Shown piece by piece: positions 11,447 through 12,647 of a DNA stretch of 34,072 bases. This stretch comes from Nemertoderma westbladi (lineage: Eukaryota; Animalia; Xenacoelomorpha). The DNA lies in contig JAUCBJ010004528.1 of assembly GCA_032718475.1 (NCBI GenBank), positions 1 to 34,072 on the forward strand, in the 5' to 3' direction. How positions within the stretch are numbered: the first letter of the stretch is position 1; every line of letters begins with the position of its first letter. A model generated the notes under the pieces. It was not told the DNA's origin, made no database searches, and was given only the letters and a program-made list of their open reading frames with translations. The position numbers and the translations under genes were made by a program.

Positions 11447-12647
11447 ATAAATATTACTACCAATGATAATTATTATTCTTTTAAATAATTAATATTGCGG
11501 GATAGATCTAAAAAACTTTATTTATTTGTATTAAATAGAAATGGAGATCAAATTAACTAAATAAATGAATACGAGTCCATGTTCTCTATAACGAATACAA
11601 GTAAACGTTTTCTGATACATAACGTCTAAAACTGTTGCGGGTCCTTACGCCCTCTTGCCTCTGATCCTACGGGCCAGTTTGGATATCCTTCGGCATTATG
11701 GTAACTCGATTGGCGTGGATAGCGCACAGATTCGTGTCCTCAAACAATCCAACGAGATAAGCCTCAGATGCTTCACTACACCTCTAAAATATCGTAGAGG
11801 CCTTCAGTTAATGATTCGCTGGTTCCCAATATCGAAGCGGTGTTTCCGATCAGGATAGCTATCAGGATACGCTGTAGTAAGAAGCGATGAGAACGGGGCT
11901 CATGTGTGTTGGCGTGGAGCCTCATCCCGACTTCTTTGAGGAAAGCGGCTGTTCTCGGACCGGGGCGGCCAAATGTCTCAAAGGCAACTGGTTCGAACTG
12001 ATAGCCCCGATCAATTAACTCCTGATACTTCCTAATCTTTGCGTTCTCCTGATCCTCGGCTATGCGACCACCAATGGTTTGGCTTATTCTGAGATGGCTG
12101 GGGGCCAGCGGGTCGACTACTGTGGCATCCCAGGTAAGTGTTCTTCCCTGGCTCCAAGGAACTAATGTTACACCATCTACCCGCTTCCCATCGCTCAAAC
12201 AGAGACCTGGCGGTTCACGCAGGGATGGCACGCCGCAGCTGTTTAGTGATCGCTTTACGATATCGTTCAACATGCTGTGGCGTGCTTGTCGACCTGCGCT
12301 CTTACTGCACGAGAGACCATGGAGACCGTCAGATTTAACGGGTTTACCGCACCGGAAACAGTTGTGGGGCTCCGTTACTTTACATCCCAGGCGGGTTGCT
12401 ATTGAAATACGGAGCTGGGCATCTGTTAGTTTCAGGCCTAATGATGATACTGGGATCACGTCGATCCAACAGCCAGGGATTGGGTCGTCTAAAGCGTTTA
12501 GCCGGGCCAGATCATTACCGACAGCGGATTCGTGGAGGCAACCACGGTTGAACTCATGGATTGGAGCCATCCATGAACTCTGTTTGGAATCGGTTGGTGC
12601 GATGACGTCAGTGGTGGTGTAGGACTGCCACAGTTCTAGTGCACTGC
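11447..12647 (-). mobile_element. 5'-truncated CRE-like non-LTR retrotransposon with restriction-like endonuclease; ORF ends at 11776
   Basis: KQSSW; SSLGLKL..LRISIATRLG; CCHC knuckle CFRCG..DGLHGLSC; RH..LND; REPPGL..DGKRVDGVTLVPW..TWDATV; KIRKY; PVAFETFG; GNTASILGT. Candidate target-site duplication aatatttttg (11437-11446) and aatattttttg (12648-12658); AATAAA and an (AAT)n-like tail at the 3' end. Confidence 0.88.
11645..11774 (-). pseudogene. H3: Histone H3 C-terminal fragment (residues 94-135), decayed
   Basis: [32 protein letters not shown][+1 nt][10 protein letters not shown], i.e. canonical H3 with K115N, E133K and a 1-bp insertion. Confidence 0.95.

Follow-up and report, generated by a model that had tools for sequence, protein, structure and literature searches.

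In Nemertoderma westbladi, a non-LTR retrotransposon with a restriction-like endonuclease has very probably exchanged its own 3′ UTR for the last exon of a histone H3.3 gene through one splicing event, in which a donor at the end of the element was joined to the normal acceptor of the exon. This origin is proposed from the sequences of the two partners, because the H3.3 intron ends at the junction base and an unfused parent of the element has the hexamer GTAGGT there. The fusion itself is real and is a trait of the whole family. An initial annotation of this DNA had offered two interpretations, capture of H3 as a 3′ UTR and insertion targeted to H3 genes; the former is supported, the latter is not, and the splicing mechanism was missed.

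The copy described here lies in a contig stretch of 34,072 nucleotides, referred to below as the window. The fused unit and its immediate surroundings consist of the following parts.

11087..13287, no strand assigned: non-coding foldback (MITE-like) repeat that received the insertion, recognized by its inverted arms, its depth and a second copy
11437..11445, plus strand: left copy of the target-site duplication, AATATTTTT, recognized from contigs and an uninterrupted copy of the repeat
11446..11529, minus strand: AT-rich 3′ end with AATAAA at 11526-11521, of low depth; either family tail plus donor-site flank, or distal UTR
11530..11644, minus strand: H3.3-derived 3′ UTR common to the family, deep in all four runs, its low boundary approximate
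11645..11774, minus strand: coding part of the captured H3.3 exon, codons 94-135 and stop, with K115N, an extra base near 11678 and E133K
11774..11775, minus strand: fusion junction, where the putative splice donor of the element meets the acceptor of the last H3.3 exon (Q93/E94)
11775..12644, minus strand: 5′-truncated non-LTR retrotransposon that retains the C-terminal part of its ORF (restriction-like endonuclease, preceded by the post-RT linker and a CCHC knuckle), with the stop TAG at 11776-11778 and an own 3′ UTR of one base, 11775
12648..12656, plus strand: right copy of the target-site duplication, with extra bases 12645-12647 between it and the element

Public runs used for comparison

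Four of eight public runs contain the stretch (X1-X4, from three studies), and all four were compared with the window. They were used as assembled contigs, in which depth is a rough relative measure rather than a copy number and rare variants are lost, and one of them may be the source of the window itself. A contig was taken to bridge the junction when it had at least 31 letters on each side of 11774/11775. Although X4 is labelled 'DNA?', we infer that it is RNA, because it contains spliced H3.3 and its depth is 20,000-96,000 on the H3 part against at most 60 on the element. X4 contigs leave most of 12236-12631 uncovered, which proves nothing about the element.

Structure of the fusion

On the minus strand, the frame of the element closes with YDILEV-TAG (stop 11776-11778), a single T follows at 11775, and H3 begins at 11774. 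Codons 94-125 (11679-11774) agree with the H3 chains of the PDB at 31 of 32 residues, the one difference being K115N, and the H3 segment scores against the Pfam Histone family with an E-value of 3.6e-13. One added base near 11678 causes a frameshift, after which codons 126-135 and the TAA are found at 11645-11677; there, E133K is assigned against what we take to be the C-terminus of H3. The initial annotation had described a retrotransposon fused at its stop to a 3′ segment of H3, an element ORF open for about 290 codons, and two replacements and a frameshift in the 130-nt H3 part. All of this is borne out: the TAG, the one T, codons 94-135 and the stop can be read in order, the two replacements and the extra base are present, and the frame runs for 290 codons from 12648, the element proper beginning at 12644. 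The H3 part sits behind the stop of the element, so that it is untranslated with the element ORF.

From the H3 stop to the target duplication there are 199 nt, within which AATAAA begins at 11526. The '(AAT)n-like tail' reported for this region was overstated; there is neither a real (AAT)n nor a poly(A) tail, AAT being present as three units only and the longest run of A in the final 85 nt being 4. The 3′ UTR is deep in all four runs, the RNA-like X4 included, down to bin 11532-11575. The shared depth stops near 11530, where AAATAAATAAA begins, and the last 85 nt of the window copy are of low depth, since in X1-X3 bin 11488-11531 has 101-169 and the bin beside it 2071-3066. An Rfam search found no histone stem-loop after the H3 stop. 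A special RNA structure in the captured stretch was also considered and rejected, since the stretch folds no better than shuffled sequences (z +1.72).

The element and its relatives

By its motifs, the element is recognized as the C-terminal part of a protein of non-LTR retrotransposons with a restriction-like endonuclease. A C-terminal CCHC knuckle is present in the ORF, followed by motifs of a PD-(D/E)xK-type endonuclease, and the residues C97, C100, H110, C114, R123, H124, E145, D158, D174 and K204 are invariant in an alignment of 22 proteins (the window protein and 21 of 63 hits). The RT domain is missing from the truncated window copy, and 58 of the 63 longer relatives carry it (PF00078), the best of the relatives being 64% identical. 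A profile of the relatives matches R2 proteins from the RT through the endonuclease with an E-value of 1.5e-24. Pfam gave no family for the endonuclease part, with a single hit at E 0.09, and the Atlas search matched only unnamed clusters.

The C-terminal motifs (CCHC knuckle, RH, E and D...D...K) and, in the relatives, the upstream RT are shared with the CRE, R2, R4, NeSL and HERO clades as these are outlined in the passages cited (PMC4640811, PMC3636483, PMC12857005). The spacing of the motifs is C-x2-C-x9-H-x3-C-x8-RH, with KRVD where R/KPD is expected, and it departs somewhat from the SLACS/CRE pattern given in one of these sources (PMC12857005). The fused copy has a target duplication of 9 bp; such duplications are reported for CRE and R4, and one account states them for all known CRE (PMC3636483). 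Typical, though not universal, targets of CRE are spliced-leader exons or telomeric repeats, whereas the window copy is found in a foldback repeat. The label 'CRE-like' of the initial annotation is a plausible resemblance; the hits included no named CRE reference sequence. In a quick tree of 62 C-terminal regions, also without named references, the element groups only with the proteins P0002-P0006.

More distant matches were found in scans of other collections. A metagenome scan with a single protein gave 4 weak loci from 68 pattern matches and was uninformative, and a viral scan gave 2 weak loci from 19 matches. The scan of bacterial genome contigs gave 13 loci (L005-L017) that encode a eukaryote-type retrotransposon protein at 37-49% identity; their presence in bacterial assemblies is likely due to eukaryotic binning contamination. 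Nine of these 13 loci reach the C-terminus, and the DNA downstream of them is ordinary.

A ubiquitin hydrolase domain (PF00443) occurs in the same ORF in 4 of the 63 relatives (P0032, P0035, P0037 and P0047), a further hint that members of this group capture host sequence. The same organism also has a related element family of about 82% similarity (record 32 of X4 and record 15 of X2, at window positions 12094-12192).

The fused form is a multicopy family

The junction is bridged in three of the four runs, from three studies. The bridging contigs are record 4 of X1 (depth 664, no differences), record 16 of X3 (depth 1368, no differences) and record 18 of X4 (depth 49, one difference); no listed contig of X2 bridges by the 31-letter rule, the best overlap there being 35 and 25 letters. 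The X4 contig has 45 unaligned letters 5′ of 11985 and may be a truncated copy inside another transcript, and it is not counted as expression of the full element.

It had been suggested that the H3 mutations be compared among copies. Record 18 of X3 spans 11593-11740 at a depth of 1219 without a gap, with a single deviating letter that is unplaced and with both replacement sites free of listed differences, and record 2 of X1 spans 11626-11686 with zero differences. The frameshift is thus shared in deep contigs, and these matches indicate that the H3 mutations are inherited within the family.

The depth of the element climbs toward its 3′ end, from 338 to 1273 in X1 and from 421 to 4597 in X3, as 5′ truncation gives, and the family extends in frame beyond 12644 in X1, X2 and X3. 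The window copy differs from deep contigs at 2 of 641 and 3 of 580 letters. It is a young, 5′-truncated member of a multicopy family.

These contigs bear directly on the explanation that the fusion is a one-off chimera, or an assembly artefact, at the window locus alone; a one-off template-switch product had been named beforehand as the outcome that would overturn the capture. Nothing beyond the single window copy speaks for it. Two of the studies have identical deep junction contigs and the third adds one more that bridges, family contigs carry both the junction and the shared frameshift, and the explanation is already refuted unless contig depth is off by about fifty-fold. Its probability is practically negligible. 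The proposed capture of H3 as the 3′ UTR of a family is instead supported, since junction and frameshift alike recur in deep contigs.

The H3.3 gene and the unfused parent

In X1 and X2, low-depth contigs (3 and 18, respectively) follow the H3 exon up to 11774 and then continue in AT-rich sequence, whose end on the sense strand is TTTCTTTCAG. This end reads as an intron acceptor directly before E94. In X4, the codons for AAIGALQ directly precede the exon, as in spliced H3.3. The native donor is therefore recognized as a low-copy H3.3 gene, with Q93/E94 as an intron-exon boundary. The last intron of human H3F3A is at the same codon. AAIG (residues 87-90), introns, poly(A) and single genes are given as marks of H3.3 in the section cited here (PMC8015243), and the donor gene has AAIG, bears an intron and is low-copy. 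The extra base at 11678 is missing from the deep X4 contigs, in which 2 of 57 and 3 of 60 letters are unlike those of the captured piece.

On the side of the element, an unfused variant (depth 55 in X1 and 131 in X3) leaves 11774 with GTAGGT, a splice-donor-like hexamer one base after the element stop. Of the two partners, the element has a candidate donor and H3.3 an acceptor. The unfused variant has 3 differences in 52 letters from the fused form. Its continuation is known from 12 letters only; of the three differences that the variant has near the junction, two are unplaced, which leaves the exon side of the donor uncertain. GTRRGT occurs at 48 of 68,144 positions of the window (0.33% of G positions) and at none of 869 element positions. 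We estimate that an exon boundary and a GTRRGT hexamer would be met together by chance in less than 1 in 10,000 cases, a value that takes the odds of landing on the exon boundary as about 1-2 in 400, a figure of our own.

The fused junction outnumbers the unfused one by depth, with 664 against 55 in X1 (12:1) and 1368 against 131 in X3 (10:1). By contig depth, the fused form seems to have reached about ten times the level of its unfused parent and is an amplified subfamily.

From these partners, the following course can be proposed. A parent copy may have lain in sense orientation inside or upstream of the H3.3 gene (in cis), or its RNA may have been trans-spliced to H3.3 pre-mRNA; the cis route is simpler and seems about twice as likely, but the contigs showed no copy in such a place, nor a full-length copy, a donor locus or a 3′ tail of the family. 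The spliced RNA would take its 3′ end from H3.3, and the reverse transcriptase of the element itself would copy this RNA back and so found the subfamily. The H3 part of the subfamily would then decay as non-coding sequence, and new copies would go into dispersed T-rich sites by target-primed reverse transcription, like the copy in the foldback repeat.

A founder could also have arisen without splicing, if a reverse transcriptase switched template from H3.3 mRNA to element RNA, or if DNA recombined at microhomology, and the product then spread. Non-LTR reverse transcriptases are known to switch templates, and the G at 11774 is shared by the element and H3.3, giving one base of microhomology. 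However, such a founder must meet the exon boundary and the GTRRGT hexamer together by chance, and we consider it very unlikely.

Splicing may, on the other hand, have occurred over and over at a master locus, where an unfused element lies ahead of a degenerate second copy of the last H3.3 exon and is re-spliced in each round; the copies would then not form a self-replicating fused lineage. Such a locus would likewise yield an exact donor-acceptor junction and common H3 mutations, and the close match of the window copy to the deep contigs (within 0.5%) is what would be expected of one source or a few. Yet the only listed intron-exon contigs differ once from the window in 11725-11774, like the spliced X4 contigs, so that they look native, and the unfused variant, with its three differences, is not the direct source. 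A master locus is thus unlikely, and a single founding splice remains the preferred origin.

The targeting interpretation holds that the element inserts site-specifically at Q93/E94 of H3 genes and that the window copy is an off-target 3′ transduction. Multicopy sequences are the targets of most elements with such an endonuclease, as far as the cited text goes (PMC4640811), and the 5′ flanks of full-length copies lie outside the contigs seen. Against this, the native branch has a depth of 3 (X1) and 18 (X2) while the junction has 664-1368; in X2 the junction is about 50 times as deep as this branch (915 and 18), and the gap is wider still in X1. At the DNA level, E94 is preceded by an intron base rather than by Q93. 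The captured piece has a frameshift that the native transcript lacks. The other two listed loose ends in the H3 piece (11740 in X4 and 11758 in X2) run into AT-rich DNA that is not H3, and the window copy itself sits in the foldback repeat. A tblastn search with the H3 fragment found no H3 near 19 loci of distant relatives (nothing better than E 0.44), which is a weak control. In short, neither a multicopy target nor an H3 3′ flank like that of the native gene was found in this material. Site-specific insertion into H3 is most unlikely, given the low-copy H3.3, the intron boundary, the diverged H3 piece and the non-H3 flanks seen. The further suggestion that the H3 part might aid target pairing finds no support.

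Insertion into a foldback repeat

The repeat that received the window copy is of high copy number and has long arms and inner palindromes. Its arms are 82.5% alike over 412 columns, its depth is 13,749-33,979 in X1-X3, and a second, uninterrupted copy is located at about 1205-1523. The 9-mer AATATTTTT flanks the insertion on both sides and is found once each in the uninterrupted copy and in the mirror arm. The 9-mer alone is weak, with 12 occurrences in the window; the duplication of 9 bp is supported because the motif is single in the uninterrupted copy and the mirror arm, and because contigs join across the insertion site. The candidate target-site duplication that had been placed around the whole unit is thereby substantiated. 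Together with the 5′ truncation, it marks the copy as a product of target-primed insertion, and the T run of AATATTTTT may have served as the primer for reverse transcription of an RNA with an A-rich end.

A sub-threshold Rfam match to the histone stem-loop in a palindrome of the foldback (13231-13280, 16 bits against 34) is probably due to chance.

Elsewhere in the window, KRI1 (7729-9768, minus strand), TRAPPC5 (9909-10484, minus strand) and a sulfotransferase (32154-32930, minus strand) are single uninterrupted ORFs, while the H3.3 gene keeps its intron. The best matches of the neighbouring TRAPPC5 are 68-73% in lancelet, annelids and a brachiopod, none of the hits coming from a close relative of the animal. 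An ORF for inositol-pentakisphosphate 2-kinase at 21418-25092 (plus strand; Pfam E 3.7e-44) contains a glycine-rich tandem repeat that stays in frame for about 700 residues, in units of about 9 residues, which is either a real expansion or an assembly error. A 285-codon open frame at 30577-31434 (plus strand) has no match in Pfam. Other fragments resembling LINE reverse transcriptases are located at 6343-6903 (plus strand), 17170-17955 (plus strand) and 32935-33327 (minus strand), of which only 17170-17955 has a Pfam match (RVT_1, E 2.5e-6). There is also a long array of units of about 50 bp at about 1540-6050, and a 91-bp tandem repeat at 14090-14500.

Comparison with known cases of exon capture

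Splice-mediated exon capture is of a known kind; new here are the 3′ end, the ORF-bearing element and the core histone gene as donor. LAVA of gibbons is likewise a retroelement that acquired a new 3′ module from a host locus and founded a family (PMC5174737). In Model B for LAVA, which is a proposed model, a donor in SVA was spliced to an acceptor in an HSD17B3 transcript (PMC5174737). According to the passages cited, LAVA depends on L1 proteins to move and is not autonomous, the sequence it gained comes from an intron, and the acceptor is a hypothetical one (PMC5174737), whereas the H3.3-fused element has its own ORF, has taken the coding end of a core housekeeping gene, and leaves both putative splice sites visible in the parents. 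In human SVA_F1, exon 1 of the host gene MAST2 became fixed in a spreading subfamily, similar to the H3.3 fusion, and the master copy is presumed to lie within an intron of the donor gene (PMC5753468, PMC10681720). SVA_F1, as described in these sources, is a 5′ capture by a non-autonomous element, and in the H3.3-fused element it is the 3′ UTR that is replaced. PVA and FVA of gibbons, named in one of these sources (PMC5753468), offer a further comparison. These composite retroelements carry sequence of the host gene PTGR2. They are non-autonomous, L1-dependent and primate-specific, unlike the H3.3-fused element. Both are said to have been assembled by splicing, in work of Ianc et al. from 2014. 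The H3.3-fused element thus works like SVA_F1 and LAVA but is not a member of their group, since it has its own endonuclease ORF and is neither derived from SVA nor moved by L1.

Targets named for elements of this endonuclease class are rRNA, spliced-leader, tRNA and snRNA genes, microsatellites, telomeres and other elements (PMC4640811, PMC8869645 and PMC3636483, in the parts cited). The H3.3-fused element differs from these clades in that no fixed multicopy target was seen for it and its 3′ UTR comes from the host. Our literature search found no H3.3-capturing or H3-targeting family, nor exon capture by an ORF-bearing endonuclease element; most subscription journals were outside the search, as were Repbase and the supplement of Fell et al. 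(2025), which may contain it or another histone-linked family. The same search gave nothing on the position of the H3.3 intron or on animal CRE elements, and the word 'histone' is absent from four papers searched for it. A review reportedly places oyster Tx1 families on histone H2B genes.

Implications for the element and its host

The founding of families by splicing would be extended by this case from non-autonomous primate elements to an ORF-bearing invertebrate element, in which both splice partners are still visible. The R2 protein binds the 3′ UTR and thereby positions the RNA for priming, in the account cited (PMC13580325). Since the fused lineage spread with one base of its own 3′ UTR, and to about tenfold over its parent, relaxed template recognition is suggested in this R2-related clade, and the enzyme of the element would need no own tail RNA.

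An adaptive role of the captured exon is conceivable, though on balance rather doubtful. With a 3′ end from an essential and very abundant mRNA, the element would gain efficient 3′ processing, stability and perhaps a stretch proof against silencing; it would thereby have displaced its parent and, as an autonomous element, would prime without its own 3′ UTR. If this is true, silencing by small RNAs could not attack the captured stretch without striking H3.3.

For the host, fragments of H3.3 are scattered through the genome, likely in tens. They can inflate counts of histone genes, and they could yield small RNAs against H3.3. The presence of the parent and the fused form in one genome is also a ready-made test of the role of the 3′ UTR, which bears on retrotransposon-based gene insertion.
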